Shown here: piece by piece, positions 9,370 to 41,971 of the stretch
How the letters are laid out: every line of letters starts with the position of its first letter
How positions within the stretch are numbered: position 1 is the stretch's first letter
Virus record (IMG/VR): IMGVR_UViG_3300031248_000001
Strand: one strand, 5' to 3'
Origin: a virus
Lineage: Duplodnaviria; Heunggongvirae; Uroviricota; Caudoviricetes
Length of the DNA: 64,000 nucleotides
Made by a program: the position numbers and the translations under genes
Notes under the pieces: generated by a model
What the model saw: the letters and a program-made list of their open reading frames with translations, nothing else
Databases searched by the model: none
Told to the model about the DNA's origin: nothing

Positions 9370-12300
9370 ATGACACCACCGCGCACCCCAGAAGAATGGG
9401 CCGCCCAGGTCATGCGCGAACACGCGGCGGCGAACCCGGTAGTCGAAGCCGCCCGCGCCCGTGCCGGTGAAGAGTGCGGACCGCTCGGCTGTTCCCGGTT
9501 CGCTTCCCGCGCCCTCAAAGACGCCGGCTACGACTTCGCCTCCGCCTCCTCGTCTGATCTCCGCCGCCAGATCCTCGCGCGCGGTGGGCAGGAAGTCCCC
9601 GACCCCCGCGCGGGTGACCTCTTCTTCCACGTCGGCGGTCCGACCGGCTACTCTCACGTGGGCGTAGTCGGCCAGGACGAGATTATCGACGCCCCCGGCC
9701 GTAGTGCCGCCTACCGCGCCCTGGTCCGCCGGGGCGCTCCCCGCAAGCCGTCCGTCTACGTGCGGCTCCCCGAAACCCCCAACGTCTCCGTCTCCAGCAC
9801 TTCGCGTGGCGCTCTCGCCTCCCGCGGCGGCACTCCTCCGCGTACGCCCGAAGAGTGGGCGCAGCAGCAGATCGCGGCCCAGGAAGCGAAGACCCCGGAG
9901 CAGTGGGCGGCGGAAGTCATCCGGCAGCGGATGAACGAGACGGAAGATCCGCGCATCACTGCCGTCCAACGCCGTGCCCAGGCCAAGCCCGGCTACACCC
10001 AGCAAGCCGCACAGGCCCCCGCACGTCCTGCGCCTGCTCTGGGGTCGGGGAAGACCCCCCGCGATTTCATAGGCGGCGTGCCGATCTTCGGCGGGATGCT
10101 GCAGGGCGAACTGGATCGGAACGCGGCCATTGAGCGGCAGTCCGGTCAGCGGATTCGCGGGATGATGCGCGGGCCTGCCCCGGCCGCGCCCTCGATGCGC
10201 GACCTTCTCAACCGCCCCACCCCCACGCGCGCTTACATCGAAGGCTTGACCTCGCCGGGTGCGGGGCAGCGGGCGAATGCGCGGGCGGCGACCCCGGAGC
10301 GACAGCGCGAGGTGCGCTACCAGGCGACCAGGAGCGCCCAGGCGTTCAACCCGTTCACGAACGATGTGGTAAGGCCGCGGACGGAGACGGAGAAGAACCT
10401 CGCGTATGCGGAGGGGGCGTTCCTGCCGAGCGGGCAGGCGGCCAAGAACACGGCGGAAGAGGCGTGGCGGCAGGCCGTGGCCGATGAGAAGTATCCCGCG
10501 CCCCCGCAGATTCCCGCGCACAAGAAGGCCGAGTATCTGAAGAAGATCCGGGCGGCGCTGCCCGCCTACAACCGCTACGTCGATGAGCAGCAGCGGTTGC
10601 TGGATCAGGCGCGGGAAGCGAGCTTGAAGGAGTATCAGCGGCGGGCGGCGCCCCTGCACGCCAGTTTCGATACGCCGGAGCGGGCAGCGGAGTTCGACCG
10701 GCTGGATGAAGAGCGCCGGCAGCGGGACGCCCGCATCCTTAAAGGCTTCCTGGCCCGGATGGAGCCGGAAGTGGTCTTGAAGTCGATGGGGGAGCTGACC
10801 CCACTCCAGCGTCAGGCACTGGCTGCGAAGGCGGGCGCCGATGTGGTCTGGACGCTGCAGTCCCCGAACATCCTGCGGAGCTACGTGTTCGATGCCGGGG
10901 TCACGGCGGTTGCCGACCGGATCGGGGCGGCGGCGGCCGTCAAGATCTTCTCGAAGACGCCGGCCGGACAGGCGGTGGTCCGGCGCCTGATGACCGAGGG
11001 GGCGATTGCGGGTGGCATCCAGCAGCCGGCGACGCGGGCCTTCGTGGACCCGAACGCGACTCCGCAGGACCTGGCCCTGGAGGCGCTGGCGGGGACGGCG
11101 GGCGGTGCGGTGTTCGGCGGGGTGGTCGGGGCGGCGGGGAAGGGCGCGCGGGCGGTGATGGGGCCGGTGGATGTGGGGGCGGTGCCGCGCCCGAAGGCGA
11201 CGAAGGGACGCGTGCCGGTGGTGAAGCCGAAGGCGCCGGTGCAGGCCGAGGCGCAGGCCGCCCCGATACCTGCGGAAGCGCCTGTAGCGCCCGTGGTGGT
11301 GGCGAAGGCGAAGGCGGCGGCGGTAGAGCCCGAGACGCCTGCGGCACCTCTTGCGAAGGCCAAGCCCCCTATCCAGGCACGCAACAAGGCGGAACTTGCC
11401 CGCGCCCTGGTGAAGCAGGCGGGCCTTCCGCCCGAACAGGCGCGGGCCGGCGCCGAGGTCTTCGACGCCGCCGCGCAGACCGCCGCGAAGCAGCAGGGCC
11501 TGCCCGTAGAAGAACTATACGGGCGTGTGTCGTATGCGAAGGGCGGGAAGGCGGCGGAAGGGGCGCTCCAGCAAGAAGGCAAGGCCCCAATCTTTTACTC
11601 CCAGCTATCCCGCGTGGTAGACGCGAAGATGCCGAACCGCGCGCCCGTGTCGCAACTGCGCGGGCTGCTGAACGGGGCGGGGGTCAAGGCCGAGGAGTTG
11701 AAGTGGACGGGGCTGGATGAGTTCCTGGGGGAGGCGGAGAAGGCGGGGCGGCCGGTCACGAAGGCGGAAGTGCAGGAGTGGCTGCGGGGGAATGCGGTGG
11801 AGGTGAGGGAGGTAACGAAGGGGGGAAGCGACCGCGCGGAAAGGGCACTGGCGGAACTTGGCTATGAGCCGGTTTGGAACGATGGAGCCTATCGTCTGCG
11901 GGATAGGGAAGGGAACGTTTACAGCTACCACGATCAAATTGAGGCTCCTCGCGGTGAACGTGACCGCATCATCATGGCCTGGGACGATCTGAACACACAG
12001 GACGCTACCCGCAGGCAGATGGGCACGGATACGAAGTTCGGCCAGTACACCCTCCCCGGCGGGAAGAACTACCGGGAGTTGCTGCTGACGTTGCCAGAAA
12101 CACAGGCAGCCAAGAAGTACCGCGCAGTCGTGGAAGAGATTAACCGTCGCGCTGATGCTGACCCCGAGATTGCTGCGTTGCGGGCGCGAGCGAAGAGGCT
12201 TCAGGATGCGGTAGAAGGTGCTTCTGATTTGGGGCAGGCGCGGGCAGCACGAGACGCGGCAGAGAACGCGCTCATCACGCTTCGCAATGAGCGACTTGGT

Positions 12301-15300
12301 GATTTGCAGGCAGAGGCTACCCGCCTCTCGGATGAGGATGCCCGCTCACGCTACCACTCCCCCCACTGGGACGAACCCAACGTCCTCGCCCACGTCCGGT
12401 TCGATGAGCGCGTGGATGCGGACGGGAAGCGGGTCCTGCACGTCGCGGAGATCCAGAGCGACTGGCACCAAGCGGGGAGGAAGAAGGGGTATAAGGGATC
12501 GCTCCCCGAAGGGCATCGCGTCCGCGAACTGGACCCTGAATCCCAGAACTACAAAGACGGGTTCCCGTTCGTCGTAGAGGATCGCAACCACTTCCCGCTT
12601 GCCGTGGGGCGAACACCGGAACAGGCGATTCGCAACATCGCAGGCCTGGCCCCAGCCGCCCCCTTTTCCAAGACCTGGCACGAACTCGCCCTGAAGCGGT
12701 TACTAAGATTCGCTGCCGAAAACGACTTCGAGCGGGTGACGTGGGACACGGGCCTCGAAAACGTCCGTCGCTATGAGGATGAGTTCCGCAAAAACGTTGA
12801 TGAGATCCAGTGGGAGGACACCGGCAACAAGCATCACGTGCGAGCGGTCAAGGACGGCAAGGTGGTCTACGAGGATGACTTCGATCCGACTACCGGCAAG
12901 GGCACCAAGACCTTCAGGGACGAAATTCCGTCGCTCGATGAGGTGGTGGGGAAGGACATCGCTAGTCAGATCCTAGAGAGCTCGGGAAGGGCGGAAGCCA
13001 GTAACTCGGCTTCGTGGTCGGGCAAAGACCTCACCATCGGCGGCGAGGGCATGAAGGGCTTCTACGATCAGATCCTGCCCGCTGCCGCCGCGAAGCTCGG
13101 GAAGAAGTGGGGGGCGAAGGTTGGGAAAGTGCAAGTCGGGGAACGCGATTTCGTCGAGGCAGTCAAAGGGCAGTACTTCGTGCGCGGCGCGGACGGTCGC
13201 CCCTACGGCGGCGGACTTTCGCGTGCGGAAGCCGAAGGATTGGCCCTCCGTGTAGGCGGCGACGTAGTGCCTGAACAGGCACCGGCCCGTCGTTTTGTAG
13301 ACGCCCACTCCCTCGACATCACCCCCGAAATGCGCCGCTCCGTCCTCACAGAAGGCCAACCCCTCTTCCAATCCACCAAGGCCTCCGTCGAATTCACCGA
13401 AACCAACGACGCCTTAATCCGTTTCTTCAAAGGCGCCGACCTCTCGTCTGCCCTGCACGAACACGGCCACGTCTTCCGCCGCTGGCTGCCCGAAGCCGAC
13501 CAGGCTATCGCCGCCGAGTGGGCGGGCGCCACGGATGGGAACTGGACGCGCCCGGCCGAAGAGAAGTTCGCGCGCGGCTTCGAACGCTACCTGCGGGACG
13601 GGAAGGCGCCGACCCCCGAGCTCAAGCAGGTGTTCGCGAAGGTGCGCGAGTGGCTGATCGGCATCTACCGGCGCATCAAGGGCAGCGATATCGATGTGGA
13701 AGTCTCGCCGGAGATGCGGGACTTGTTCGATAGGATGCTCGGTGGGGAGGGCGCGCTGGCGAAGAAGGTGGCCAGGGAGGCAAAGAAGCCGGGGCCGGAG
13801 TATGCCGCGTCGATCAATCTCGACAAGATTAACGCGCCCGAACCGCTGAAGGACCTGATCCGCGAGACGGCGGAAGCGAACGACCAGTGGCAGGCGCAGC
13901 GGCGCGGGACGAAGACCTGGGAAGAGACGCAGAAGCGGGCTAAGGAGTTGATCCGCACGGGCGTTATCACGCCCGAGTCCCTGAAGGGGGTCAAGCGTGG
14001 CACGGCCCTGAATGCGGAAGAGGTGCAGGCGGTGGCTACCCTGCACGTCCGCATGGGTGACGAGGTGCTGCAGGCGCGGAATGCCTACGAGGCGCACCCG
14101 ACCCCGGAGAACGAGGCTGCCGTCATCGCAGCGATCTCGCGGTTCGGGGTCGTAGAACGCACGCTGGCCGGAGCATCGTCGGAAGCGGGCCGGGCGCTGA
14201 ACATCCATCGGCTGGTCAAGGAGACGTATCAGGGGGTCGTGGGGACGGCGGAGCGGATGTTCGGCGAGGGGAAGGGGGAACCAGCGCGGAAGGCACGGCG
14301 ACCCGCCGATAAGCCGTTCACCGGGGAGCGGAACAAGGACTTCACGCCCGCACGCGCGAATGCGGCGCGCGACCGGCTGCAGAAGTTGGCGGGGATCGGC
14401 AAGGGGAAGGGGGAGCCCGAGGGGCCGCTGCGACAAGAGGCGATGACGCCGGAGGAGCGGGCGGCGGCCAAGCTGTTCGCGGAGAACCTGCCTGACCTCC
14501 GCGAGCTCGGCGGCTTCTACGTGGAGACTTACTTCCGCGATGAGGGAGTGCCGATCAACTTCCGCGAGTGGTCCGGCTTGATGCAGAAGGACCTGGGCGG
14601 GACTTTCACGGAGCCGCAACTGCGAACGCTCTGGGACCGCTACCTGAAGCCGGAGGCCGTGCAGCGGGCGAAGAGCCGCGTTACGCGGGACAAGGCGACG
14701 GAGAAGGTGCTGGAGGCGCTGGGCGGGAAGGACGCGCCGGAGGAGGTGCTTCGCAAGCTCGCCGCCTTCACCCCCGACGACACGGTAGGGCTGACCCAGT
14801 TCCTCCGTTCGCAGCAGCAGTGGACGTTCGCGGACCGGATGCACGCCTACTGGACGGCGAACATCCTCTCCGGGGTCCGCACGCAGGGGCGAAACATCGC
14901 CTCGAACGCCATCTTCGGGATCACGCAGATGCCCGTGCGGGCCGTGGCGGGCGCCGTGGACTTCGTAGCGACGGCGGGAGGGAAGGTTGGGGAGCGGCAG
15001 ATTTACGCTTCGGAGGCGCTTCCCGCCGCCGTGGGCTACCTGCGCGGGATGCCGGCAGGGTTCCGCAAGGCGGCGTACATCCTGCAGCACGGGTTCGGGA
15101 TCGAGGATGCCGGGAAGTTGGAGTTTCCGAACGTGCCCGAGTTCCGGGGCGGGGCGGCCAATCCGTGGAACCAGGTCGGTCGGATGCTCTCCGCGGCGGA
15201 CGCGCTTTTCAAGTCGATGTCCTACGAATCGGAACTCCACGCGCTGGCGACCCGGCAGGCGCTTCGGGAGGGACTGAAGGGGAAGGCGCTGAGCGAGCGC

Positions 15301-16542
15301 GTGACGGATCTGCTGCTGGCCGCTCCCGAGGCGCTCGTAGAGGGGGCGCAGAAGCGCGCGGGGTATGACACGTTCACGAGCGATCCGGACGCGGTAACGC
15401 GGCTCTTGATCGGCGTGCGGAACACGCGGGTCGGCGGGCTGCAGCCGGTCCGCTTCATCATGCCGTTCATGAACACCCCCGCCAACATCCTGAAGCGGTC
15501 TTTCGAGTTCAGCCCCGGCGGCGCGGCGCACGGCCTGGCGCTTCTGGCGAAGAAGGACCCCGAAGCGGCGCTGGTGACGGCGCGCGGGCTGGTCGGCAGC
15601 GCGGTGCTCGTCTACGCAGCGTCCCTGGCAGCGGGCGACAATCTGACGGGCGCGGCCCCGCAAGGAGATCGGGAGAAGGCGGAGTTCTACCGGCTCGGGA
15701 AGCAGCCGTATTCCGTGAAGGTGGGCGGGAAGTGGATGGACTACCGGACGCTCGGCCCCCTGGCCTTCCCGTTCGTGGTGGCAGCCGCCTTCCACGACGC
15801 TTACACGCGGGAGAAGAAGATCCCTGACAGCCAGCGGATCAGCGAGGCCGCGGGGGCGCTGGGGAAGTCCATCGTGGATCAGACCTTCTTTAAGGGCCTT
15901 TCCGATCTGGTGGAGGCGATAGAGAACCCGGGTCGCGCAGGCGGAAACCTGGTCGGCAACGTCGCTGGCGGGTTCGTCCCCCTCTCCGGCCTCGCCCGCA
16001 ACATCGCCCAATCTCAGGACCCGTACGTGCGCGACCCGCAGGGCATTTACGAACGCATCATCAAGGACCTGCCGTTGGTGTCGGGGCGAGTACCGGCACG
16101 GGTAGGGGCGCTAGGTGAAGACCTGCGCCGTCAGGGGAGTGAAGGGCTCCTCGCGCTTTCGCCTTCCGGGGTCTCGCCGGAGACTAAAGACCCGGTGAAC
16201 CGTGAGTTGGCCCGGCTTGGAGTGCGGCCCGGCCTGCCCGGCGATACGCTGACGATCCGCGGTGAGAAGACGAAACTGGAGCGCGATGTGGCGCGGGCTT
16301 ACAAGCAGATACCGGGGCGGCTGATCCGGCAGGAGATTGCGCGGCAGATCGGGACGCCGGGTTATGGGAAGGCGTCGGATGAGGCGCGGCAGAAAGCGTT
16401 GGAACGGCTTATCTCGCACCGGCGGAACCAGGCACAGGAGTTGGTGCGGGCGGCCTTGGCGGCGAAGCGCGATCCCGTGGTGCTGCTGCAGCGGTGGTAC
16501 GACGCGCAGGCACGGAACCTACCGGCGCTTCCCGAACAGTAG
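9370..16542 (+). CDS. giant multidomain virion-associated/polyvalent-like protein (2390 aa): N-terminal CHAP/NlpC-P60-like Cys-His peptidase, Ala/Pro/Lys linkers, internal HExxH zincin-like motif
   Basis: N-terminus has CGPLGCSRFASRALKDAGYDF...FHVGGPTGYSHVGVV. The motif TPPRTPEEWA occurs twice. Motif ALHEHGHVFRRW (HExxH). One uninterrupted ORF. Confidence 0.8.
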   Translation: MTPPRTPEEWAAQVMREHAAANPVVEAARARAGEECGPLGCSRFASRALKDAGYDFASASSSDLRRQILARGGQEVPDPRAGDLFFHVGGPTGYSHVGVVGQDEIIDAPGRSAAYRALVRRGAPRKPSVYVRLPETPNVSVSSTSRGALASRGGTPPRTPEEWAQQQIAAQEAKTPEQWAAEVIRQRMNETEDPRITAVQRRAQAKPGYTQQAAQAPARPAPALGSGKTPRDFIGGVPIFGGMLQGELDRNAAIERQSGQRIRGMMRGPAPAAPSMRDLLNRPTPTRAYIEGLTSPGAGQRANARAATPERQREVRYQATRSAQAFNPFTNDVVRPRTETEKNLAYAEGAFLPSGQAAKNTAEEAWRQAVADEKYPAPPQIPAHKKAEYLKKIRAALPAYNRYVDEQQRLLDQAREASLKEYQRRAAPLHASFDTPERAAEFDRLDEERRQRDARILKGFLARMEPEVVLKSMGELTPLQRQALAAKAGADVVWTLQSPNILRSYVFDAGVTAVADRIGAAAAVKIFSKTPAGQAVVRRLMTEGAIAGGIQQPATRAFVDPNATPQDLALEALAGTAGGAVFGGVVGAAGKGARAVMGPVDVGAVPRPKATKGRVPVVKPKAPVQAEAQAAPIPAEAPVAPVVVAKAKAAAVEPETPAAPLAKAKPPIQARNKAELARALVKQAGLPPEQARAGAEVFDAAAQTAAKQQGLPVEELYGRVSYAKGGKAAEGALQQEGKAPIFYSQLSRVVDAKMPNRAPVSQLRGLLNGAGVKAEELKWTGLDEFLGEAEKAGRPVTKAEVQEWLRGNAVEVREVTKGGSDRAERALAELGYEPVWNDGAYRLRDREGNVYSYHDQIEAPRGERDRIIMAWDDLNTQDATRRQMGTDTKFGQYTLPGGKNYRELLLTLPETQAAKKYRAVVEEINRRADADPEIAALRARAKRLQDAVEGASDLGQARAARDAAENALITLRNERLGDLQAEATRLSDEDARSRYHSPHWDEPNVLAHVRFDERVDADGKRVLHVAEIQSDWHQAGRKKGYKGSLPEGHRVRELDPESQNYKDGFPFVVEDRNHFPLAVGRTPEQAIRNIAGLAPAAPFSKTWHELALKRLLRFAAENDFERVTWDTGLENVRRYEDEFRKNVDEIQWEDTGNKHHVRAVKDGKVVYEDDFDPTTGKGTKTFRDEIPSLDEVVGKDIASQILESSGRAEASNSASWSGKDLTIGGEGMKGFYDQILPAAAAKLGKKWGAKVGKVQVGERDFVEAVKGQYFVRGADGRPYGGGLSRAEAEGLALRVGGDVVPEQAPARRFVDAHSLDITPEMRRSVLTEGQPLFQSTKASVEFTETNDALIRFFKGADLSSALHEHGHVFRRWLPEADQAIAAEWAGATDGNWTRPAEEKFARGFERYLRDGKAPTPELKQVFAKVREWLIGIYRRIKGSDIDVEVSPEMRDLFDRMLGGEGALAKKVAREAKKPGPEYAASINLDKINAPEPLKDLIRETAEANDQWQAQRRGTKTWEETQKRAKELIRTGVITPESLKGVKRGTALNAEEVQAVATLHVRMGDEVLQARNAYEAHPTPENEAAVIAAISRFGVVERTLAGASSEAGRALNIHRLVKETYQGVVGTAERMFGEGKGEPARKARRPADKPFTGERNKDFTPARANAARDRLQKLAGIGKGKGEPEGPLRQEAMTPEERAAAKLFAENLPDLRELGGFYVETYFRDEGVPINFREWSGLMQKDLGGTFTEPQLRTLWDRYLKPEAVQRAKSRVTRDKATEKVLEALGGKDAPEEVLRKLAAFTPDDTVGLTQFLRSQQQWTFADRMHAYWTANILSGVRTQGRNIASNAIFGITQMPVRAVAGAVDFVATAGGKVGERQIYASEALPAAVGYLRGMPAGFRKAAYILQHGFGIEDAGKLEFPNVPEFRGGAANPWNQVGRMLSAADALFKSMSYESELHALATRQALREGLKGKALSERVTDLLLAAPEALVEGAQKRAGYDTFTSDPDAVTRLLIGVRNTRVGGLQPVRFIMPFMNTPANILKRSFEFSPGGAAHGLALLAKKDPEAALVTARGLVGSAVLVYAASLAAGDNLTGAAPQGDREKAEFYRLGKQPYSVKVGGKWMDYRTLGPLAFPFVVAAAFHDAYTREKKIPDSQRISEAAGALGKSIVDQTFFKGLSDLVEAIENPGRAGGNLVGNVAGGFVPLSGLARNIAQSQDPYVRDPQGIYERIIKDLPLVSGRVPARVGALGEDLRRQGSEGLLALSPSGVSPETKDPVNRELARLGVRPGLPGDTLTIRGEKTKLERDVARAYKQIPGRLIRQEIARQIGTPGYGKASDEARQKALERLISHRRNQAQELVRAALAAKRDPVVLLQRWYDAQARNLPALPEQ

Positions 16543-18383: not shown

Positions 18384-19268
18384 CTACTCCTTCGTCATCA
18401 GTGATCGCACGTCAACGATGTTGCCGCCGCTAGAGCCGACCACAGGCAGTTTGCCGTCCCACTTCTCGATCCACTCGCGAGCCAGCACCTTTGCCCCGCC
18501 CTGACTATTGAGCGCTGCCGCCCGCACGCGATGTGATTCAGCCTCGCCCTTCGCCTTAGCGATGGCGGTCTCGGCTTCCATCTTGGCCTTCGATAGCACG
18601 TACCGCTGCTTTTCGCTTTCCTGCTGGGCGACCTGCTTTTGCTCGATGGCCTTGTTGAACTCGTCGGAGAAGTCGAAGTTGGTGAGGCTTACGCCGCCGG
18701 GCTCGACCGCGATGTTGTAGACGGCGAGGCGCTGGGTAAGGCTCGTGTCCACAGACGCTTTGACCTGCTCGCGGTTGCGGATCAGTTCCTCAGCGGTGTA
18801 GCGGCTCACGACCGCCTTTAGTGTTTCCTGCACGGCGGGTTGGATCACGCGGGCATCGTAGCCAATGCCGACCGTCTTATAGAGCGCCCCCACCTGCGCC
18901 GGGTCCAGATGGAAGTTGATCGCTACGTCAGTGTGGACGATCTGCAGGTCCTTGCTCGCGGCCTGTGCCTTGGCGTCGGAACGCTGCGTGCGAACCTCCA
19001 TGCGTTCTACGCCCTGCATAACCGGCATGATGAAGTGCGCCCCTTCCGAAAGCACCCCCTTGACCGCCCCGAACTGCAGCAGCACGCCGCGATGGCCCGC
19101 CGGGATGCCGACGTAACTCGCCAGCGGTATCCCGATGAGTAGCAGTGCCACGCCGCCCGCTGCGAGGCCGCCCTTGAGCCTCCGGTAGTGCTGACCGTCG
19201 ATCTCCTGCGGGAACGCGATGCCCGCCACGACCAGTAAGACCCCTGCCACCATCAACAGTATGCCCAT
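18384..19268 (-). CDS. SPFH/band-7 (prohibitin/HflC-like) membrane protein
   Basis: N-terminal TM helices followed by a PHB domain (…HFIMPVMQGVERMEVRTQRSD…TAEELIRNREQVKASV…) and a coiled-coil C-terminus. AAAGGA precedes the ATG. Confidence 0.85.
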   Translation of the reverse strand: MGILLMVAGVLLVVAGIAFPQEIDGQHYRRLKGGLAAGGVALLLIGIPLASYVGIPAGHRGVLLQFGAVKGVLSEGAHFIMPVMQGVERMEVRTQRSDAKAQAASKDLQIVHTDVAINFHLDPAQVGALYKTVGIGYDARVIQPAVQETLKAVVSRYTAEELIRNREQVKASVDTSLTQRLAVYNIAVEPGGVSLTNFDFSDEFNKAIEQKQVAQQESEKQRYVLSKAKMEAETAIAKAKGEAESHRVRAAALNSQGGAKVLAREWIEKWDGKLPVVGSSGGNIVDVRSLMTKE

Positions 19269-25155: not shown

Positions 25156-26658
25156 TTAAACCCGCCACACGATCTCCAGGTCGTACCGCCCGCGCTCCGG
25201 GTAGGTCGTCAGTCGGATTCGCTCGATCAGCGCCGCGCACGCTTCCTGCCGCGCCAGCGGGTCCGGACCCGCCCCTAGCGCTTCTCTGACCGCCCGCGCC
25301 AATTCCGCCCGCTCCAGCCCCCGCTCCTCCGGTTCCTCTCCCTCTAGCGCCGCCCAGCGCTCCGTCAACAGGGCTTGCTCCGCCTGCACCTCCGCGAGCT
25401 GCCGGTCCAACTCCGCCTCCGTAATGACGCCGCGCCGGTAAAGGGACAGGACCCGCTCTCGTTCCCCGGACTTCGCGTCGATCCGCGCCCGCAGCACCTC
25501 GCGCTCCCTCGCCCGCTCCGCTTCCTGCACCCGCCGACTTTCCGCCTGCCCCGCCAGGCTGGCGTCCACCGCCTCCTCCGTCCGCAGCCACGCCTCGACT
25601 TCCTGCCAGACCGCCTCCTCGATCCGTTCCGCGGCCACCAGCTTCCCCGCGCATTTCGGCCGGTAGCGCCAGCCGTGGCACATATAATAATGGTAGCCCG
25701 AGGTTTGCGGCCAGCCGTGGTAGCGCCGACCGCAGGCGCCGCAGACGAGCAGGCCCCGGAGCAGATAGATGCGTTCGTTCGGACGGGTGCGCGGGCTCCG
25801 GTTCCGCACGAGCACGGCCTGGACCGCCGCCCAGGTCCGGTCATCCACGAGCGCCGGGCACGCCTGCTCTACACCTCTCCGCAGGCGCACCCCCTTGTAC
25901 GTGGTATTCCGGAGAATCTGCCGCACCGTGTTCGGCTGCCAGCGCCCGGAGTAGGGGCGGCCGGTGCGGTAGTGGGTGACGGCACGACCCGCCCAGGCCG
26001 TGGGGACGGCGAGCGCGTTGAGGTAGTCGGCGAGCTTGATGCAGCTCCAGCCCTGGGCCGCCAACTCGAACAGCCCCCGGACGATCCGAGCCTCCTCCTC
26101 GCAAGGCACGATATAGGAGCCGGTCTCCCGCACCTCCACTGCATACCCGTAAGGGGGCCGCGCGCCACCCATCCAGCGTGCCGGCTCCGCGTGCGCCCGG
26201 TGCATCCCTGCCCGGACCCGCTCCGCTATCGAGTCGCGCTCCCAGGCGGAGACGACGGCCAGGAAGCCGATCATCGCCCGGCCACTCGGAGAGGTGGAGT
26301 CGAAAGATTCCGTCACGGAGACGACCGCGCAGCCTGCCTCCGCCAGCGCGTGGATCGCGTTATGCGTCACGCGGATGTCGCGCCCGAGCCGGTCCAACCG
26401 ATACAGATAGACGGTGGTGATGCGGCCGGCACGGGCGGCGGCCAGGAGCGCCGCGCCGCCAGGTCGTCGTTCGAGCGGGATGGTGCCGGAGATTCCGTCA
26501 TCGAGGAACGTCTCCGCAAAGGTGAGCCCGCGCAGGGTGGCGTAGCGGCGGGCTTCGTCTATCTGCGTGTTGATGGTCTGGCGTTCGGCCTGCTCCGTGC
26601 TGGAGACACGGGCATAGAGCGCGTCACTCCCCCCGCCAGACCCGCACGGCCCGCTCAT
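25156..26658 (-). CDS. large serine recombinase (phage integrase)
   Basis: N-terminal resolvase domain (ALYARVSSTEQ…RLDRLGRD), recombinase domain, Cys-rich zinc ribbon and coiled-coil C-terminus; 500 aa. Confidence 0.9.
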   Translation of the reverse strand: MSGPCGSGGGSDALYARVSSTEQAERQTINTQIDEARRYATLRGLTFAETFLDDGISGTIPLERRPGGAALLAAARAGRITTVYLYRLDRLGRDIRVTHNAIHALAEAGCAVVSVTESFDSTSPSGRAMIGFLAVVSAWERDSIAERVRAGMHRAHAEPARWMGGARPPYGYAVEVRETGSYIVPCEEEARIVRGLFELAAQGWSCIKLADYLNALAVPTAWAGRAVTHYRTGRPYSGRWQPNTVRQILRNTTYKGVRLRRGVEQACPALVDDRTWAAVQAVLVRNRSPRTRPNERIYLLRGLLVCGACGRRYHGWPQTSGYHYYMCHGWRYRPKCAGKLVAAERIEEAVWQEVEAWLRTEEAVDASLAGQAESRRVQEAERAREREVLRARIDAKSGERERVLSLYRRGVITEAELDRQLAEVQAEQALLTERWAALEGEEPEERGLERAELARAVREALGAGPDPLARQEACAALIERIRLTTYPERGRYDLEIVWRV

Positions 26659-26887: not shown

Positions 26888-27388
26888 CTACTCCGCCATC
26901 TTCTGCCGCCGCTGTTCCGTCCGAAGAATCCGCACGGCGCGGTTCAGGATCTCCAGGTCGGAAGGGGTCAGGTCGTCGTCGCCGGTGCGCTGCTCGACCT
27001 TCAGGTGTTCAAGGTCGGCGTCGTATTCGAGGGGTTCGCGGGTGGCGGCGTCTAGGATCGCGGCGGCGGGGTCCTGGCCGATCTGGCGGAGCGCTTCGCG
27101 GGCTGCGGCTTCAGCGATAGCTTGGCGTTCGTCCACAGGGGCAGGGCCACCGTAGCCAGCTAGCGCCAGCCATTCGTCCCGGTCCAGGCTGTATGCCTGG
27201 ATCAGCCGCTCTATGAACTCGCGGCTAGGTCGTTCGCCTCGAAGAATCTGACCAATCCGCCCGCCGGTATATCCCAGCCTGCGCCCTACGTCACCTTGCG
27301 CTTCACCTGCGACCAATTCACGGAACCGGCGGCTAAACCCGGAGAGCGGTGGGCCTGGCATAGTAACCACTTCTGTAAGGACACTCAT
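26888..27388 (-). CDS. XRE-family HTH repressor (cI-like)
   Basis: HTH QGDVGRRLGYTGGRIGQILRGERPS. Divergent from a cro-like gene and adjacent to the integrase. Confidence 0.65.
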   Translation of the reverse strand: MSVLTEVVTMPGPPLSGFSRRFRELVAGEAQGDVGRRLGYTGGRIGQILRGERPSREFIERLIQAYSLDRDEWLALAGYGGPAPVDERQAIAEAAAREALRQIGQDPAAAILDAATREPLEYDADLEHLKVEQRTGDDDLTPSDLEILNRAVRILRTEQRRQKMAE

Positions 27389-27498: not shown

Positions 27499-27747
27499 AT
27501 GACAAACGGACAGATACCAGAGACCGGCCCGGAGCTCCGGGCACTGCGGATCGAGGGAGAGCTTTCCCTGGTGACGGTCGCCGAGGGGCTGGGCGTGAAC
27601 CGCACGATGCTCTCTAACTGGGAGCGCGGGATGGCGATGCCCGCTGACGTGCCCGCCCGTTACCGCAAGCTCGTGCAGGAGTTGACAGCGGCGCGGGCAG
27701 CGAAGGTGCGCGAGCGGTGCCGCAAGCCGCGGAGGGCGGAGGCGTGA
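27499..27747 (+). CDS. XRE-family HTH protein (Cro-like)
   Basis: LSLVTVAEGLGVNRTMLSNWERG. Confidence 0.65.
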   Translation: MTNGQIPETGPELRALRIEGELSLVTVAEGLGVNRTMLSNWERGMAMPADVPARYRKLVQELTAARAAKVRERCRKPRRAEA

Positions 27748-28889
27748 GCCGGAAGCACGCCAATCAGCCCGGTCTGCTCGAAGTCCCGCCCGCCTGGTCG
27801 GAGAAGTGGCAGGGCATGCCCGAGTTCGATCAGCCGAACCAGATGCCGTGGCAGTCGATCAAGGTCCACTTCCGCAACGCCGAGGACCGGCAGGCGTTTG
27901 CAGACCTTATCGGCCAGCCGGTCTACTCGCGGACGAAATGCGTCTGGTTCCCGAAGGCTGAGATCGGGCGCATCGCGGATAAGCGATACCGCGCTCGTTC
28001 CGAAGTCCTCCCGCAATACCCGGTCTACGTCATCTCGAAAGGGCGCTGGAAATTCCGACATACCGCGAAGGCGCTTGAGGCTATGAGAGTGCCTTACCGC
28101 ATTGTAGTTGAGCCGCAAGAGTTCGATCTTTACGCCGAGCACATCCCTGCCGTGAAGATCCTGACCCTGCCCTTTAGCAACCTCGGCCAGGGGTCGATCC
28201 CGGCTCGGAATTGGGTGTGGGAGCACGCGGTATCCGAAGGAGCCGAGCGTCACTGGATATTAGATGACAACATCTATGCCTTCTTCCGTCTCAACCGTAA
28301 TCTAAGAGTTAAGTGCGAGACCGGAGCGACCTTTCGAGCGGCTGAAGAGTTCACCGACCGCTATGAGAATGTAGGGCTGTCTGGCTTCAACTACAAGATG
28401 TTTGCCAAGCGGAAAGACGACATCCCGCCCTACGTCCTGAACACCCGCATCTACTCCTGCATCCTCATTCGTAACGACATCCCGTTTCGCTGGCGAGGCC
28501 GGTACAACGAGGACACGGACCTCTCTCTTCGCGTGCTTAAAAGCGGTCTTTGCACGATCTTGTTCAACGCCTTCCTTGCCGACAAGGCAACGACGATGAC
28601 GACAAAGGGCGGGAACACGGACGAGCTTTATCAGGACGACGGGCGGCTCAAGATGGCCGAGTCTCTCGCGGAGCAGCACCCTGACCTCGTGAAGATCACC
28701 GAGAAGTGGGGCCGACCGCAGCATAGCGTCAATTACCACGTGTTTCGGCACAACCGGCTGAAGCGGAAGCCGGGCGTTGAGCCGAGCGAGGGCGTTGACG
28801 ACTTCGGGATGAGCCTGGAGTTCATCGCTCCGAACGGAAACGGGCACGAGCCGGTCTGTGACGGCCTCTTCGCGGAGGCCCAACTGTGA
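27717..28889 (+). CDS. GT-A-fold-like putative glycosyltransferase (function uncertain), first gene of the early-right operon
   Basis: GTG start overlaps the cro-like stop. Conserved-looking blocks YVISKGRW…RVPYRIVVEP…WILDDNIYAF…GFNYKMFAKR. No TM segment. Confidence 0.4.
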   Translation: MPQAAEGGGVSRKHANQPGLLEVPPAWSEKWQGMPEFDQPNQMPWQSIKVHFRNAEDRQAFADLIGQPVYSRTKCVWFPKAEIGRIADKRYRARSEVLPQYPVYVISKGRWKFRHTAKALEAMRVPYRIVVEPQEFDLYAEHIPAVKILTLPFSNLGQGSIPARNWVWEHAVSEGAERHWILDDNIYAFFRLNRNLRVKCETGATFRAAEEFTDRYENVGLSGFNYKMFAKRKDDIPPYVLNTRIYSCILIRNDIPFRWRGRYNEDTDLSLRVLKSGLCTILFNAFLADKATTMTTKGGNTDELYQDDGRLKMAESLAEQHPDLVKITEKWGRPQHSVNYHVFRHNRLKRKPGVEPSEGVDDFGMSLEFIAPNGNGHEPVCDGLFAEAQL

Positions 28890-29046: not shown

Positions 29047-29247
29047 ATGAGCGCCACGCTTATCCTGCCCTGCCCGCATTGCGAGCACCCGGTCATTGAC
29101 CGGCACGACTACTCGCGCCCGGTCTACCAGCAGCACGCATGCCCCCGGTGCGGGCTTCGTGGCCCCAAGGGCGCGACCTACGCGGAGACGGCGGGCCTGT
29201 GGAACAGCCTGCCGCGCCGCCTGAACCCGGAGGCCTCCCATGCCTGA
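29047..29247 (+). CDS. zinc-ribbon small protein
   Basis: CPHCEH…CPRCG. Confidence 0.45.
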   Translation: MSATLILPCPHCEHPVIDRHDYSRPVYQQHACPRCGLRGPKGATYAETAGLWNSLPRRLNPEASHA

Positions 29248-31773: not shown

Positions 31774-32156
31774 TGGCACTGATCGGCATCGAAGTCGAGG
31801 TTTCTCGCAATCAATACAGCGCCGTCATCCTACTCGTGGATGACGAGGACGTGCGCTTCAAAGACGCTATCGGCAAGGTTGGCCTATGGGATGCTGTCGC
31901 GCCCTTCGTGGAACCCGCAATCACCACGACGCTTGACTGTTCGCGTCACTCTTGGGACTGGGAAGCGGAACCGGGAGAAGACGGCTTCGAAGTCCAGGGC
32001 GTGAAGATCATTGCCGAGCGAGAGGCCCGCCAGTTCAAGTTTTTCGAGGTGGGTTACGCAGGCCCGACCCCTGCCGAAGTGAAGGCCGCGCGGGAGGCTG
32101 CGGGCCAGATAGCGCTTGCGTTGCCCCCCGACCCCCAGGAGGCGCTGCCGCTATGA
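31773..32156 (+). CDS. hypothetical protein
   Basis: TGATG overlap start. Confidence 0.45.
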   Translation: MALIGIEVEVSRNQYSAVILLVDDEDVRFKDAIGKVGLWDAVAPFVEPAITTTLDCSRHSWDWEAEPGEDGFEVQGVKIIAEREARQFKFFEVGYAGPTPAEVKAAREAAGQIALALPPDPQEALPL

Positions 32157-32797
32157 GCACCTCCCGCGAACACCCAATCTTATTCAGCGGCGAGATGGTC
32201 AAGGCGCTGCTGGAGGAGCGGAAGTCTCAAACGCGCCGGGTCGTGAACCTCCCTGGATACGACGGTGGCGGGGTCTACGAGACGCGAGACGCCCGCGTGG
32301 TTTCCGTCTTGGCCCTTTCCCCCTACGGCGGGGCGGGAGCGCACCTCTACGTCCGCGAAAAGTGGCGCGTCATCCCTTCTGACAACGGCCACGACTTCGC
32401 CGTGGAATACGCGGCCGGGGGCGACCTCCAGCACTGGCGCGACGGCGAGCTCCGCTACCAGCACCTGTGGGCGGACCTGTATGAGGGCGGCAACTGCACT
32501 CCGGCCGTGCAGGCTTCGGAGTGCCGGTGGCGGCCGTCGATCCATCTCCCTCGGGCCTTCTCCCGCCTCACCCTCGAAATCACCTCCATCCGCGTCGAGC
32601 GCCTCACGGCAATCAGCGAGGAAGACGCGCGGGCGGAAGGCTTCGACCCGAACTGGCTCTATGCTCGCGAGTTCGGTGTCGGGCCGCTGGACTGGTTCTC
32701 CTTTACCTGGAACGGAATAAATGGCAAGCGCCCCGGCTGTTCCTGGGCGGCCAATCCGTGGGTGTGGGTGCTGGAGTTTCGGAGGGTTGAGCCGTGA
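32153..32797 (+). CDS. ASCH-like domain protein (tentative)
   Basis: N-terminus ILFSGEMVKALLEERKSQTRR is typical of a phage ASCH-like family; recalled from memory, unverified. Confidence 0.4.
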   Translation: MSTSREHPILFSGEMVKALLEERKSQTRRVVNLPGYDGGGVYETRDARVVSVLALSPYGGAGAHLYVREKWRVIPSDNGHDFAVEYAAGGDLQHWRDGELRYQHLWADLYEGGNCTPAVQASECRWRPSIHLPRAFSRLTLEITSIRVERLTAISEEDARAEGFDPNWLYAREFGVGPLDWFSFTWNGINGKRPGCSWAANPWVWVLEFRRVEP

Positions 32798-35987: not shown

Positions 35988-36220
35988 AGATCCTCTATTC
36001 CTGCGGCTGCGAACGCCCCGCGCGAGACGTGGCCTGTGACCACTACTGCCCTACGGCCGAGGTGCTCAAGGAGTTGTGCGCCACCAGCAAGACGGCGCTG
36101 TTCGCGGCCCCGAAAGGTGAGGCCACGTCTCGGCTCAGTCGGCTGCATCACGCGCACCTGCGCGCGTTGACGGCACACTACGCGCCGGGTGGGCGGTGGA
36201 GTTCGGGGAAGGCGGCTTAG
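35984..36220 (+). CDS. small Cys-rich protein
   Basis: SCGCE…CDHYC. Confidence 0.4.
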   Translation: MKILYSCGCERPARDVACDHYCPTAEVLKELCATSKTALFAAPKGEATSRLSRLHHAHLRALTAHYAPGGRWSSGKAA

Positions 36221-36399
36221 GCGGCGCAGAATCCGCCCTTCCGTCCTTCGTCGCGGGGGTTGGTCGGCAAGTTGAGCTTCTCGCGGAGCCACTCCTCAAC
36301 GAGAGCTTGGATGGATTTGTCCTGTTCGGCGGCGGCAAGGCGCAGCGCCTTGTGGGTTTCAGGATCAATGCGAACGTTGAGGCGGCGGTCGTCGGCCAT
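36217..36399 (-). CDS. ribbon-helix-helix (CopG/antitoxin-like) DNA-binding protein, divergent from the HNH-helicase gene
   Basis: LNVRIDPETHKALRLAAAEQDKSIQALVEEWLRE. Confidence 0.55.
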   Translation of the reverse strand: MADDRRLNVRIDPETHKALRLAAAEQDKSIQALVEEWLREKLNLPTNPRDEGRKGGFCAA

Positions 36400-36500: not shown

Positions 36501-38504
36501 GTGCGGCGGCGGTTCAACAAGTCGGAGCGGATAACGCTTTACCTCTCGGCCGATGGTAGGTGCCAAGCGTGTGGCGCTAGGCTCGGCGGGGGATGGCACG
36601 GTGACCACAAAACTCCTTACGCTGCTGGCGGGCCTACGGAAGTCGAAAACGGGCAAGCCCTTTGCCCTAGTTGCAACCAGACGAAAGGGGTTCGGATGAC
36701 CGGGAACCTTGTGCGGCGGCGCTGGCAGGAAGACTGGCTGTCGGCCGCGCGGATGAAGGTCGAGTTGGGTGAAAAGTTCCTCGTCGGAAACATCTTTTGC
36801 GGCAGCGGCAAGACCTTCGGGACTAACGATGTAACCAACGAGCTTTACCGGCGTGGGATCGTTGACGCCGTGGTCGTGCTTGTTCCGCGCATTAACCTTT
36901 GCCGCCAATACGAACTAGATTGGAGCGAAGCTAAGTGGCTCTACTCAGAGCCGATGGGTGAGATAGTCCACCGACAGAACGATGCCCCTCTCTTTCGGGT
37001 AGGGAGGTCGAATCATGAGAACTTTGGGTATGTGACCACCTACGATTCGGTGGTGAGCCGACTCGATCTACACCTCAGAGAACTTCAGGGCAAGAGGTTT
37101 GCCCTAGTCTTGGACGAGGCCCAGCGGCTGGGCGCGCGTGTAGCGGATGATGACGGCACGAAGGCCGCGACAGCGGTTCTCTCACTAGCCGAGCGGGCGA
37201 CCTTCGTCCAATTGGTTACCGGAACTCCATACCGCGCAGACGGGCAACCTCTAGTCCTAGCGAGATATAGCGCGCCGGACAGTGAGGGGCGCCGAACATT
37301 AAACGCCGATGTTAGGGCTACTTACCTAGAGGGTGTCCGAGAAGGTTACTTGCGTCCATTCGAGGCGTTGCTAAAAGACGGCAAGGGCGTGCAGGAGTAC
37401 CTGTCTGGTGGAACCGAGTACCTTCGCTTGGCTGAGATGGAGCGGGGGTTTTGCAAAATTGTAGAAGCGCCTGAATTCTGGAAGCCGCTCGTAGATGAGA
37501 CGATAGCCCTAGTGAAGGCGGCCCAGGCTGTGGACATTAGAGATCCCAAGGAACCGGGCTTCCAGCGTCTTTGCGGGCTCATCGGCGCGTGCCGACAATC
37601 CCACGCCCGCCAGATCATCGCCTATCTCCAAGAGAAGCGTGTGAGCGCAATCCTGGCTGTAAGCGAACAGGCGAACGCCGCTAAAGAGCTTGAGCGGTTT
37701 AAGGACGGAAACACCGACATCCTCGTGACGGTGGCGATGGCCCACGTCGGTTACGATCACAAGCCAATTACTGTTGTCTGCTGCCTCAACCATTACCGAC
37801 AGCGGTCATGGCTCGATCAATTCGCAGCTCGCGGGTTGCGGATGATGCGCGGGATTCCGAGAACGGATCAGACCCTGCGTTACATCGGGCCAGACGACAT
37901 CTTGCACCGTGTGTGGGCCGATGAGATGCGGCGTAATTCGGATATGGGGATGTTAGAGCGTGATATGCGTGGAGTGGCCGAGGAGCGGGATCAGGAGAGA
38001 GCCACCCCAGAAGCTTTTGTTATGCGTGATGTCGAGGTTTTGGGGGGTCGCGCGATTGGAATGGACGAGCAGTACGACCTAGACTACCTCGGTTTCGCGC
38101 ACATCGACGAATTGGCTAAACGATTCAATATCAGTGCCGCGCCGCACACGGGGCTCGCCGCATTGTTGATTAGCCAGGGCGCAGAGATCCCGACAGGAGA
38201 TCCCTATCGAGCCCAGCCGCCCTTACCTATAGAGTCTAGGCCCAAGATGACCGAGCAGGATTGGGAGAGCACCGTGAGCAGTAGGCTCAACGATCTGTGT
38301 ATAGCCTGCGACTCGAAGTTGAAGAAGAAGTTGGGCGAGGATCGTTGGCAGTTTGGGGAGACCGGAAGTCAAGCGTGTAAGTACTTCAGGGTGACTAACT
38401 GGAAAAACCAGGGCGTGCAGTTCATGCTCAAGGTCGAAGCCTACATTAAAAACACCTTCATACCCGAAAGGCTGGGGGCCGACGGTGACGATCTCCGCAG
38501 TTAG
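36501..38504 (+). CDS. HNH nuclease fused to SF2 (DEAD/DEAH-like) helicase; lower-GC gene
   Basis: N-terminus CQACG…HGDHKTPYAAGGPTEVENGQALCPSCNQTKG (HNH). Walker A GSGKTFGT, Walker B LVLDEAQ. Body GC ~55%. Confidence 0.75.
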   Translation: MRRRFNKSERITLYLSADGRCQACGARLGGGWHGDHKTPYAAGGPTEVENGQALCPSCNQTKGVRMTGNLVRRRWQEDWLSAARMKVELGEKFLVGNIFCGSGKTFGTNDVTNELYRRGIVDAVVVLVPRINLCRQYELDWSEAKWLYSEPMGEIVHRQNDAPLFRVGRSNHENFGYVTTYDSVVSRLDLHLRELQGKRFALVLDEAQRLGARVADDDGTKAATAVLSLAERATFVQLVTGTPYRADGQPLVLARYSAPDSEGRRTLNADVRATYLEGVREGYLRPFEALLKDGKGVQEYLSGGTEYLRLAEMERGFCKIVEAPEFWKPLVDETIALVKAAQAVDIRDPKEPGFQRLCGLIGACRQSHARQIIAYLQEKRVSAILAVSEQANAAKELERFKDGNTDILVTVAMAHVGYDHKPITVVCCLNHYRQRSWLDQFAARGLRMMRGIPRTDQTLRYIGPDDILHRVWADEMRRNSDMGMLERDMRGVAEERDQERATPEAFVMRDVEVLGGRAIGMDEQYDLDYLGFAHIDELAKRFNISAAPHTGLAALLISQGAEIPTGDPYRAQPPLPIESRPKMTEQDWESTVSSRLNDLCIACDSKLKKKLGEDRWQFGETGSQACKYFRVTNWKNQGVQFMLKVEAYIKNTFIPERLGADGDDLRS

Positions 38505-40828: not shown

Positions 40829-41971
40829 GTGATGATGCACTGCGGCAGCCTCTTCTCGGGCGGCGGGTTAGCGGACCTGGGCCTGGTCGCCGCTGGCTAT
40901 ACGCCTGTGTTCGGCGTCGAGTATGACGCGGCGATAGCGGAATGCTACGCGGCGAACGTCGGCCCGCACGTCACGGTCGGCCGCGTGGAGGAGCAGGACT
41001 ATCGGGGTTGGACGGATCTGGACCTGGCCTGGGCCTCCCCGTCCTGCGTGCGGGCCAGCGTAGCGAATGCGAACGCGGGCGAGACGGAAGAGGACCGGAA
41101 GGCGGCGGCGGCGGTGTGCCGGTCCCTGTGGGATGCGCGGCCGGCCCGCTTCGTGTTGGAGAACGTATCCGGATACCGGGCCTGGGAGAGCTTTCGGATG
41201 ATCGTGCGGACCTTGCTGGAGTTAGGCTATGCCGTGGATTGGGGGCTCCACAACGCGGCCGACTACGGCGTGCCCCAGACCCGCCGCCGCTTGATCCTCC
41301 GAGCCCTCCGTGACGCGCGCTACGTGCCGCCGCTGTGCCCGACGTATGACGAGCGGCCGATGAGCGCGGGCCTGTTCGAAGAGGTGTCGCCGCTCTTGCC
41401 CTGGCAGGGCTGGTACGCGGCGGTGGAGGACCTGCTGGACGGGCTGCCCGAGAGCCGGTTTGCCGCCTGGCAGCTCGCGCGTCTTCCCGAGAGCTTGGGG
41501 ACCTACCTGGTCGGTGGGAGCAACACGAGCGACGAACAGGCCGCGCCTGGGGTAGGGGTGAGCGGGCAGGCGGAGCCTGCCCGCTGCGTGGCGGGGAACT
41601 CGGATCGGTGGCGGGCGGTGTTGGTGGACAATGGCAACCCTAACCGAAACGGCGGGATAGTCCACACCGCAAATCAACCGTGTGTCACTGTCTTGGCTCA
41701 GGCTGATCGCGTTCCATTACGTGCCTTCCTCGTAGAAGACCGGCGCGCCTCCGGGTTCGCCAACGAGACGGTGCGTGCTTCCGATACGCCGCCCCGCGCC
41801 TGGCTCGAACAGGGCCGCGTCGTGCAAATGAACGCCCGCTGCCTGGCGCGGTTCCAGTCCGTGCCCGACAGCTACGCGCTGCCCGAGAAGAACAAGACCG
41901 CTTACAGAGTTATCGGCAATGGGGTCCCGCCGTTGTTTAGCCAGCGGATTGCGGAGAGCCTACACCGATGA
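40829..41971 (+). CDS. DNA (cytosine-5)-methyltransferase
   Basis: Motif I LFSGGGLADLG, PSC-type motif IV, ENV (FVLENVSGY), QTRRRLIL, C-terminal GNGVPPL. Confidence 0.8.
   Translation: MMMHCGSLFSGGGLADLGLVAAGYTPVFGVEYDAAIAECYAANVGPHVTVGRVEEQDYRGWTDLDLAWASPSCVRASVANANAGETEEDRKAAAAVCRSLWDARPARFVLENVSGYRAWESFRMIVRTLLELGYAVDWGLHNAADYGVPQTRRRLILRALRDARYVPPLCPTYDERPMSAGLFEEVSPLLPWQGWYAAVEDLLDGLPESRFAAWQLARLPESLGTYLVGGSNTSDEQAAPGVGVSGQAEPARCVAGNSDRWRAVLVDNGNPNRNGGIVHTANQPCVTVLAQADRVPLRAFLVEDRRASGFANETVRASDTPPRAWLEQGRVVQMNARCLARFQSVPDSYALPEKNKTAYRVIGNGVPPLFSQRIAESLHR

Follow-up and report, generated by a model that had tools for sequence, protein, structure and literature searches.

The window analysed here, 64,000 nucleotides of a caudoviricete virus (IMG/VR record IMGVR_UViG_3300031248_000001), contains a divergent pair of cI-like and cro-like helix-turn-helix (HTH) genes, and the first gene downstream of this pair encodes a protein, hereafter GT, that by its sequence belongs to the TAGT family (PF20691) of glycosyltransferases and is a soluble GT-A enzyme of the inverting type. 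The open reading frame (ORF) at 27717..28889 on the forward strand gives 390 aa in its longest reading, from a GTG codon, and has the composition of coding DNA, with a GC content of 0.77 at third codon positions (GC3) against 0.41 at second positions (GC2) in a genome of 65% GC. The GTG at 27744 is the start used in the gene calls of four contigs, and the database protein that is 100% identical to GT is 381 aa long; residue numbers below refer to this 381-aa form. Both candidate starts, 27717 and 27744, lie within the cro-like gene. A GGAGGGCGGAGG stretch at 27731-27742 precedes GTG 27744, which overlaps the cro-like stop at 27745-27747 as GTGA. Because of this stretch and this overlap, we suggest that translation of GT is coupled to that of the upstream 82-aa HTH (cro-like) gene. 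No transmembrane segment is predicted in GT (maximum 19-residue hydropathy 1.41), and the protein is therefore called soluble. An earlier note on this DNA had proposed a gene at 27717-28889, overlapping the cro-like stop and first after the cro-like gene, with a soluble product, and in all of this it was right, the overlap holding for either start. The gene and the elements within it are as follows.

27744..28889, forward strand: GT gene, 381 aa (100%-identical 381-aa protein, gene calls, PF20691, PHROG 842)
27731..27747, forward strand: putative translational coupling region, with Shine-Dalgarno-like GGAGGGCGGAGG, GTG 27744 and the cro-like TGA 27745-27747 (read from the sequence)
27499..27747, forward strand: cro-like HTH gene, directly upstream, its stop overlapped by the GT start (Pfam HTH_3 E=7e-7, gene calls)
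27792..28007, forward strand: N-terminal module, residues 17-88, AWSEKWQGMPEF...VHF...F..L.GQ...T..WFPKAE...DKRY, no Pfam family (predicted local distance difference test score, pLDDT, 88-97)
28008..28778, forward strand: GT-A catalytic core, residues 89-345
28035..28046, forward strand: S98-K99-G100-R101 motif, following the first beta-strand and supplying the 'R' of the R...DDD...ED signature (S98, K99 and R101 invariant in 59 homologs)
28263..28271, forward strand: D174-D175-N176, DxD-type metal/nucleotide-sugar site with Asn as third residue (invariant in 59 homologs and in tandem paralogs)
28509..28514, forward strand: E256-D257 within invariant Y-N-E-D-T-D, candidate catalytic base of an inverting GT-A enzyme (from conservation)
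28779..28886, forward strand: acidic, poorly conserved C-terminal tail, residues 346-381, probably disordered (pLDDT below 50 for residues 367-381; segment isoelectric point, pI, 4.05)

GT matches PF20691 (TAGT, TET-associated glycosyltransferase) over the entire profile (1-205 of 205; E=1.9e-47; score 162.3 bits, gathering cutoff 27.5) and PHROG 842 with E=2.6e-43. Its homologs form more than 8000 protein clusters at 90% identity, many of them 60-72% identical to GT, and among the matches listed 120 of 120 are annotated with PF20691. A scan of genome contigs gave a single match, in an Acidobacteria metagenome-assembled genome, at 72% identity. GT has the GT-A (nucleotide-diphospho-sugar transferase) fold, and its structural neighbours in BFVD are TAGT-domain phage proteins, including a T-even-type beta-glucosyl-hydroxymethylcytosine (HMC) alpha-glucosyltransferase (E=6.5e-11). 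The peptide blocks from which the earlier note had read a GT-A-like glycosyltransferase of no assigned family are present (YPVYVISKGRW, RVPYRIVVEP and HWILDDNIYAF); the fold and the DxD-type site agree with that reading, and the missing family is PF20691. In 59 homologs at 58-70% identity, the segments S98-K99-x-R101, E123-P-Q-E126, a G-Q-G-S-I-P-A-R-N loop, D174-D175-N176, Y254-N-E-D-T-D259 and G289-G-N291 are invariant. The active-site signature of phage GT-A DNA glycosyltransferases is R...DDD...ED(Y/F) (bioRxiv 10.1101/2023.12.21.572611). GT keeps R101, D174-D175 and E256-D257 of this signature, with an invariant Asn in place of the third Asp and a T after ED. Two tandem full-length GT paralogs, each with intact LDDN and NEDT motifs, occur in loci L015, L017, L023, L028 and L078, and the 979-aa protein P0380 is a head-to-tail fusion of two module-GT units.

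Homology among the relatives of GT begins about 70 residues ahead of the Pfam domain, in the N-terminal module, which packs against the GT core in the predicted structure. Its consensus in relatives is W-x-G-M-P-E-F ... V-H-F ... F-x-x-L-x-G-Q ... T-x-K-T ... W-Y-P-K, and it was found in 2104 representative clusters. In many loci the module lies outside the GT gene, as the C-terminus of a separate upstream ORF that carries a ParB N-terminal domain (ParB_N; E=1.5e-11 in locus L068, and likewise in L030 and others), and it also occurs as a free protein of 70-130 aa. The architectures seen comprise the free module, ParB-like-module, module-GT (the form in the phage studied here), ParB-like-module-GT, duplicated modules and a tandem double module-GT. 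The ParB-like-module-GT form is present in one chain in protein P0318, the N-terminus of which matches Spo0J/Noc and the module and GT-core motifs of which were read from the sequence. Searches with the module only showed no catalytic partner other than GT. ParB-methyltransferase fusions with this module were not found; both module-only searches gave only free, ParB-linked and GT-linked forms.

In split loci the GT ORF starts within a conserved overlap, in which ...GAT GAA TCC TAA is read as ATG AAT CCT in the +1 frame. This ParB-module/GT junction (for example L030 3934-3962, L031 10188-10198, L063 3964-3974) is strikingly alike in DNA sequence among unrelated phages: GAT GAA TCC followed by TAA, TAG or TGA overlaps ATG AAT CCT, so that one frame reads D-E-S-stop and the +1 frame M-N-P. 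Such conservation points to tight coupling of translation or, possibly, to programmed frameshifting, by which a fused product would arise. Elsewhere, a 1210-aa ORF (L043 4184-7816, forward strand) joins module-GT (residues ~14-428) to a family-A DNA polymerase domain (853-1208), and may represent either a genuine fusion or a read-through of the assembly. We infer that the module serves as the interface between GT and a ParB-like partner. Activation of phage DNA thymine dioxygenases by ParB-like proteins has recently been demonstrated (PMC13229309).

The surroundings of GT relatives were compared in 80 viral loci, about 1 Mb in total, in which ORFs were called and clustered and recurrent neighbours annotated. 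The commonest neighbours are the large terminase gene, 300-600 nt downstream in 20 loci, and an adjacent gene for a small-terminase-like HTH protein in 10 loci; portal, capsid and ClpP genes are also common. Upstream lie genes for single-stranded DNA-binding protein, primase, helicases, clamp and clamp loader, RecA and exonucleases, so that GT of this subfamily usually stands between the replication genes and the terminase. It is often found beside DNA methyltransferases, a uracil-DNA glycosylase (UDG)-superfamily protein or a dUTPase, and in a few loci a nucleotide-sugar epimerase/dehydratase gene lies directly downstream. Because tandem paralogs keep their motifs and sugar-nucleotide enzymes adjoin GT, real glycosyl-transfer chemistry is supported.

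Enzymes that might supply an acceptor for such chemistry were also sought in these loci. Seed searches identified ThyA/gp42-like ORFs in 0 of 80, and a motif search identified C5-cytosine methyltransferases (C5-MTases) in about 4 of 80, phmmer with the methyltransferase of the window having under-detected them (1 locus). When the 150 non-redundant ORFs that lie within 3 kb of GT in the 80 loci were compared with Pfam without preselection, one proved to be a Tet_JBP protein, one a C5-MTase and one an amino-acid:DNA transferase; several were methyltransferases of the N6/N4, MT-A70 and Dam types, and a UDG-superfamily protein and a dCTP-deaminase-like protein were also found. The single Tet_JBP ORF was not among the 29 nearest same-strand ORFs of 190-400 aa, all of which lie within about 700 nt of GT. 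TET, ThyS and C5-MTase genes occurred in 0 of the 5 Pfam-annotated contexts (+-10 kb) of close relatives. In Vibrio phage 1.124.O, a cultured phage with a complete genome, GT lies beside a Dam methylase and a dUTPase, and no oxygenase or hydroxymethylase is annotated.

A tblastn search with GT returned 25 phage records, 12 of them from Aeromonas T4-like phages (Aeh1, 65, phiAS5, Ah1 and others). These 12 show no overlap with the gp42-positive Aeromonas records (47 of 48 listed), and Aeromonas T4-like phages with GT and those with gp42 are essentially non-overlapping sets. A literature search on DNA modification in Aeromonas phage Aeh1 gave nothing relevant. Since TET, gp42 and C5-MTase rarely or never accompany GT, the labels 'TET-associated' and 'HMC' do not describe this subfamily. 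The RefSeq name 'beta-glucosyl-HMC-alpha-glucosyltransferase', carried by homologs in Aeromonas phages Aeh1, 65, phiAS5 and Ah1 and in Tenacibaculum phage PTm1, is probably an over-transferred annotation.

In known systems the hydroxyl-bearing acceptor is produced by a thymidylate-synthase-type enzyme acting on the nucleotide, or by a C5-MTase together with a TET-like dioxygenase acting on DNA. The genome of the phage studied here is about 75 kb, of which the window lacks about 11 kb; with every sizeable ORF of the window compared with Pfam and PHROGs, and precomputed Pfam calls for all genes on contigs of the same phage, the scans cover about 73 kb. A seed search found no ThyA/gp42-like ORF in the window. 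The one enzyme of these routes that was recognised is the following.

40829..41971, forward strand: C5-cytosine DNA methyltransferase (Pfam DNA_methylase E=1.1e-37)

This enzyme has motifs I, VI, VIII and X in canonical form, whereas its motif IV is a variant, with SPSC where PCQ is usual. It is a real C5-MTase and, to judge from its motifs, looks active. Its nearest solved relatives are M.HaeIII and M.HhaI, and the 'Dcm-like' methyltransferase of the earlier note is thus a genuine C5-MTase but not specifically Dcm. Its neighbours are replication initiator, resolvase and HNH genes, and GT (27.7 kb) and the C5-MTase (40.8 kb) are about 12 kb apart, with more than 20 functionally unrelated genes between them. 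5-methylcytosine (5mC) cannot be glycosylated by a glycosyltransferase, TET-type oxidation being required beforehand. Because GT would need oxidised 5mC and neither TET/JBP nor a hydroxymethylase was found in the about 73 kb covered, the functional pairing of the two enzymes that the earlier note had raised is unsupported; their separation by 12 kb and the counts in related loci (C5-MTase in ~4/80, TET in 1/80) also speak against it. It is unlikely that the acceptor of GT is 5-hydroxymethylcytosine (5hmC) or 5-hydroxymethyluracil (5hmU) from a known route. The broader suggestion of a DNA-modification or anti-defence role is reasonable, given the family PF20691 and a Lar-like gene close to GT. 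This gene and other features around GT are listed here.

29047..29247, forward strand: Lar-like restriction-alleviation gene, 66 aa, Cys-rich, two genes past GT in the same operon (PHROG 599 E=2.5e-5; Pfam Lar_restr_allev, weak)
26888..27361, reverse strand: cI-like HTH repressor gene, divergent from the cro-like gene; longest ORF to 27544 (Pfam HTH_31)
25156-26658, reverse strand: large serine integrase/recombinase, adjoining the cI-like/cro-like pair
36217-36399, reverse strand: small HicB-like antitoxin gene, on the opposite strand inside the early operon (precomputed Pfam HicB)

The Lar-like gene may, from its context, be a functional companion of GT in an early anti-restriction block. The rest of the early region, which encodes an HNH endonuclease, a Rad52-type annealase, a metallopeptidase, an HNH-helicase, a replication initiator, the C5-MTase and a RuvC-like resolvase, is an ordinary replication/recombination module.

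We put at roughly even odds (a probability of about 0.5) the reading that GT is a self-contained DNA glycosyltransferase, probably with an anti-restriction function, whose acceptor probably lies outside the known hydroxymethyl routes. The enzyme would be made early in lytic growth, its translation coupled to that of the cro-like gene, and would take as donor a host nucleotide-sugar, most simply uridine diphosphate (UDP)-glucose or UDP-N-acetylglucosamine (UDP-GlcNAc). D174 and D175 would hold the metal and the diphosphate, E256 and D257 would act as the base, and the sugar would be placed on DNA after replication, guarding the phage DNA from host nucleases alongside the neighbouring Lar-like anti-restriction gene. 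GT would be self-contained in that the module, which may tether it to a ParB-like partner elsewhere, is here fused to it. DNA is proposed as the acceptor because of the ParB linkage, the position of GT among replication, methylation and packaging genes, the fusion to DNA polymerase A, the Lar-like gene, and the fact that the characterised members of PF20691 and its close structural relatives all act on DNA (PMC13216743; bioRxiv 10.1101/2023.12.21.572611).

Several points weigh against this reading. No Tet_JBP or thymidylate-synthase-like domain, and no hydroxymethylase, was found in about 73 of the about 75 kb of the phage genome, and no ParB-like partner (no ParB_N match) among its Pfam-annotated called genes. 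We know of no DNA glycosyltransferase that acts on unmodified bases, and the GT-A/GT2 fold serves many non-DNA acceptors. The DDN of the GT subfamily is unlike the DDD of characterised DNA GT-A enzymes. The homologs have a median pI of 6.5 and no conserved basic character; because their pI values span 4.8-10, protein charge is uninformative on DNA binding for this subfamily. Finally, the functional statements made about GT derive from homology and context. A more specific proposal, that the TAGT subfamily with the ParB-linked module acts on DNA free of hydroxymethylpyrimidine and sugars a canonical base or another native position directly, with host nucleotide-sugars only, appears unlikely to us; it would amount to a new kind of phage DNA modification that takes one gene.

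GT might instead act on an acceptor other than DNA, such as a protein of the host or the phage, RNA, a signalling nucleotide or a polymer of the cell envelope, as an early step of host takeover or anti-defence; we regard this as the main rival, less likely than the DNA reading. Parallels would be the bacterial GT-A toxins, which attach sugars to host proteins, and TarP, which acts on teichoic acid. The first early gene past the cro-like gene occupies a typical host-takeover slot, and a separate late glycosyltransferase cluster by the capsid gene places protein/glycan chemistry within the repertoire of the phage. The lack of a hydroxymethyl-base source, both in the phage and in about 95% of the related loci, would also be accommodated by such an acceptor, but the ParB-like domains fused or adjacent to GT in relatives, its usual place among replication and DNA-methylation genes ahead of the terminase, and the DNA polymerase A fusion in one relative would not, and the characterised PF20691 members all act on DNA.

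A route of three steps, in which the C5-MTase makes 5mC, an unrecognised oxygenase (a divergent phage enzyme or one of the host) converts it to 5hmC and GT sugars the 5hmC, seems very improbable. GT and the methyltransferase are 12 kb apart, whereas the genes of such pathways normally cluster, no Tet_JBP match was found over about 73 of about 75 kb, and a C5-MTase accompanies the GT subfamily in only about 4 of 80 loci. The GT-bearing Aeromonas T4-like phages are, moreover, absent from the gp42-positive Aeromonas records (47 of 48 listed), and Vibrio phage 1.124.O has GT with no annotated oxygenase or hydroxymethylase. Such a route draws its support from the presence in one phage of a TAGT-family GT and a plausibly active C5-MTase, from early proteins of 250 aa and 214 aa without a family match, from the one Tet_JBP protein and one amino-acid:DNA transferase among 150 neighbour ORFs, by which the subfamily is occasionally in such a cluster, and from the precedent of the MT-5mYOX-GT pathway, established in other phages (PMC8256090). 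Hardest to credit is a catalytically altered or non-enzymatic GT-A derivative that binds nucleotide-sugar, DNA or a ParB-like protein. The third motif residue, Asn in every member examined against DDD in characterised relatives, is what would suggest it, but SKGR, EPQE, GQGSIPARN, DD, NEDTD and GGNTDEL are strictly invariant in more than 59 sequences at 58-70% identity, and a sugar epimerase/dehydratase immediately adjoins GT in some loci. Many active GT-A enzymes, too, carry variant DxD motifs.

The late cluster of sugar enzymes lies outside the window (L010 14519-20230, window-equivalent ~67.1-72.8 kb), past the major capsid gene (L010 12701-13639). It encodes a GT2 glycosyltransferase (367 aa), proteins that are GT9-like (166 aa) and GT34-like (faint match), and two methyltransferase proteins, one of Methyltransf_24 and one, of 409 aa, of Methyltransf_13/23/14, a type known from sugar C-methyltransferases. 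Since the cluster adjoins the capsid gene, we suggest that it serves virion protein glycosylation with a methylated sugar, separately from the early GT. Several other genes were observed in the window. The 214-aa protein encoded at 32153-32797 (forward strand) starts HPILFSGEMVKALLEERKSQTRRV, which looks ASCH/PUA-like; its match is to PHROG 874, of unknown function (E=7e-57), and Pfam gave none. In a 667-aa protein encoded at 36501-38504 (forward strand), an HNH endonuclease domain at the N-terminus is fused to a superfamily-2 helicase of the ResIII/helicase-C type. The 2390-aa ORF at 9370-16542 (forward strand), in the tail-gene region, presumably encodes the tape-measure protein, to judge from its position and length. 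Between the tail genes and the lysogeny module, at 18384-19268 on the reverse strand, lies an SPFH/Band-7 (stomatin/prohibitin-like) gene (Pfam E=5e-35) that looks moron-type. A 99-aa protein with repeated G-R-R-G-G, encoded at 48646-48945 (forward strand), resembles small bacterial 'KGG-repeat' stress proteins; its LEA_5 match, at 37.2 bits, stays below the threshold of 40.

DNA glycosylation is one of the main means by which phages escape restriction enzymes and CRISPR. To our knowledge, the cases that are understood all need a prior hydroxyl, provided by gp42-type hydroxymethylation, by hydroxylation of the nucleotide or by TET-type oxidation in DNA. The group described here, with its more than 8000 clusters, belongs to the same family as DNA-modifying enzymes, yet it almost never occurs with a hydroxyl-installing step. 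A 2026 survey reports that solitary TAGT enzymes are common and functionally undefined (PMC13216743). If the GT subfamily modifies DNA, it would represent a new acceptor chemistry and a one-gene route to sugar-coated DNA, of relevance to phage therapy design, to the sequencing and cloning of phage DNA and to enzyme tools. If it does not, the label 'DNA glycosyltransferase' propagated by annotation pipelines is misleading, an example being the above RefSeq name in phages that apparently lack HMC. The phage studied here offers a compact test case, a soluble protein of 381 aa with no required phage partner. The PF20691 family and, as a published question, solitary TAGTs are already known; as far as our searches show, the link of the module to ParB, the invariant DDN, the location between the replication and packaging genes and the near-complementary distribution with hydroxymethylase/TET genes are apparently undescribed. 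The accessible text of PMC13216743 gives no architecture, partner or context for solitary TAGT homologs.

Among known systems, the same survey assigns to PF20691 the T2/T6 enzyme by which alpha-glucosyl-hydroxymethylcytosine in DNA receives its second glucose (PMC13216743). This enzyme, ggt, the experimentally defined member of the family, shares with GT the family, the GT-A fold, a beta-strand-DD core and an E-D motif, and the T-even-type ggt of Klebsiella phage PKO111 is a structural neighbour of GT (E=6.5e-11). At the aligned positions, however, T6 ggt has DDD and CEDMYAF whereas GT has DDN and NEDTD, and T6 ggt is a protein of 261 aa without an N-terminal module, in contrast to the 381 aa of GT with its W-x-GMPEF module. 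T-even records were not among the 25 tblastn matches to GT. The comparison of T6 ggt with the GT subfamily gave an hhalign probability of 0.4% and an hmmsearch score of -1.3 bits, with only the DxD region aligned and without significance. In T6, ggt adjoins the gp42 dCMP hydroxymethylase gene, an adjacency that recurs across the T-even genomes listed, and an alpha-glucosyltransferase gene lies about 12 kb away, whereas neither was found in the GT phage. GT as an orthologue of T-even ggt was rejected, no significant sequence similarity and no gp42 or primary alpha- or beta-glucosyltransferase partner having been found.

Two further GT-A enzymes bear on the comparison. Trypanosomatid JGT requires 5hmU made by JBP, and Staphylococcus aureus TarP acts on ribitol-phosphate teichoic acid, not on DNA. 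TarP is a top PDB relative of GT, as it is of the phage GT-A enzymes that depend on MT/5mYOX. These phage enzymes, such as GT57, share with GT the GT-A fold, the R...DD...ED layout and phage origin, and the phage GT-A 5hmC glycosyltransferases resemble JGT (bioRxiv 10.1101/2023.12.21.572611). They differ from GT in being clustered with a C5-MTase and a TET-like dioxygenase, in acting on 5hmC and in carrying DDD and ED(Y/F), where GT has DDN and EDT. Of the elements of such an MT-5mYOX-GT cluster, the GT phage has the C5-MTase; the dioxygenase was not found (~73/75 kb), and the genes are not clustered, the methyltransferase lying 12 kb off.

The description of a solitary TAGT, namely a TAGT homolog in a phage without alpha- and beta-glucosyltransferases, fits GT; in the survey, 288 of 753 GT-encoding phage genomes have such a homolog, its function undefined (PMC13216743). 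A likeness of another kind is to the ParB-dependent T-dioxygenases, phage DNA-modification enzymes with a cognate ParB-like partner (PMC13229309). In the phage studied here the module is present and a ParB-like protein was not found among the called genes, whereas the T-dioxygenases have their cognate partner, and GT is a GT-A transferase rather than an iron/2-oxoglutarate (Fe/2OG) dioxygenase. The relatives of GT are nevertheless adjacent or fused to ParB_N proteins, and their link to ParB runs through a dedicated module of about 70 aa.

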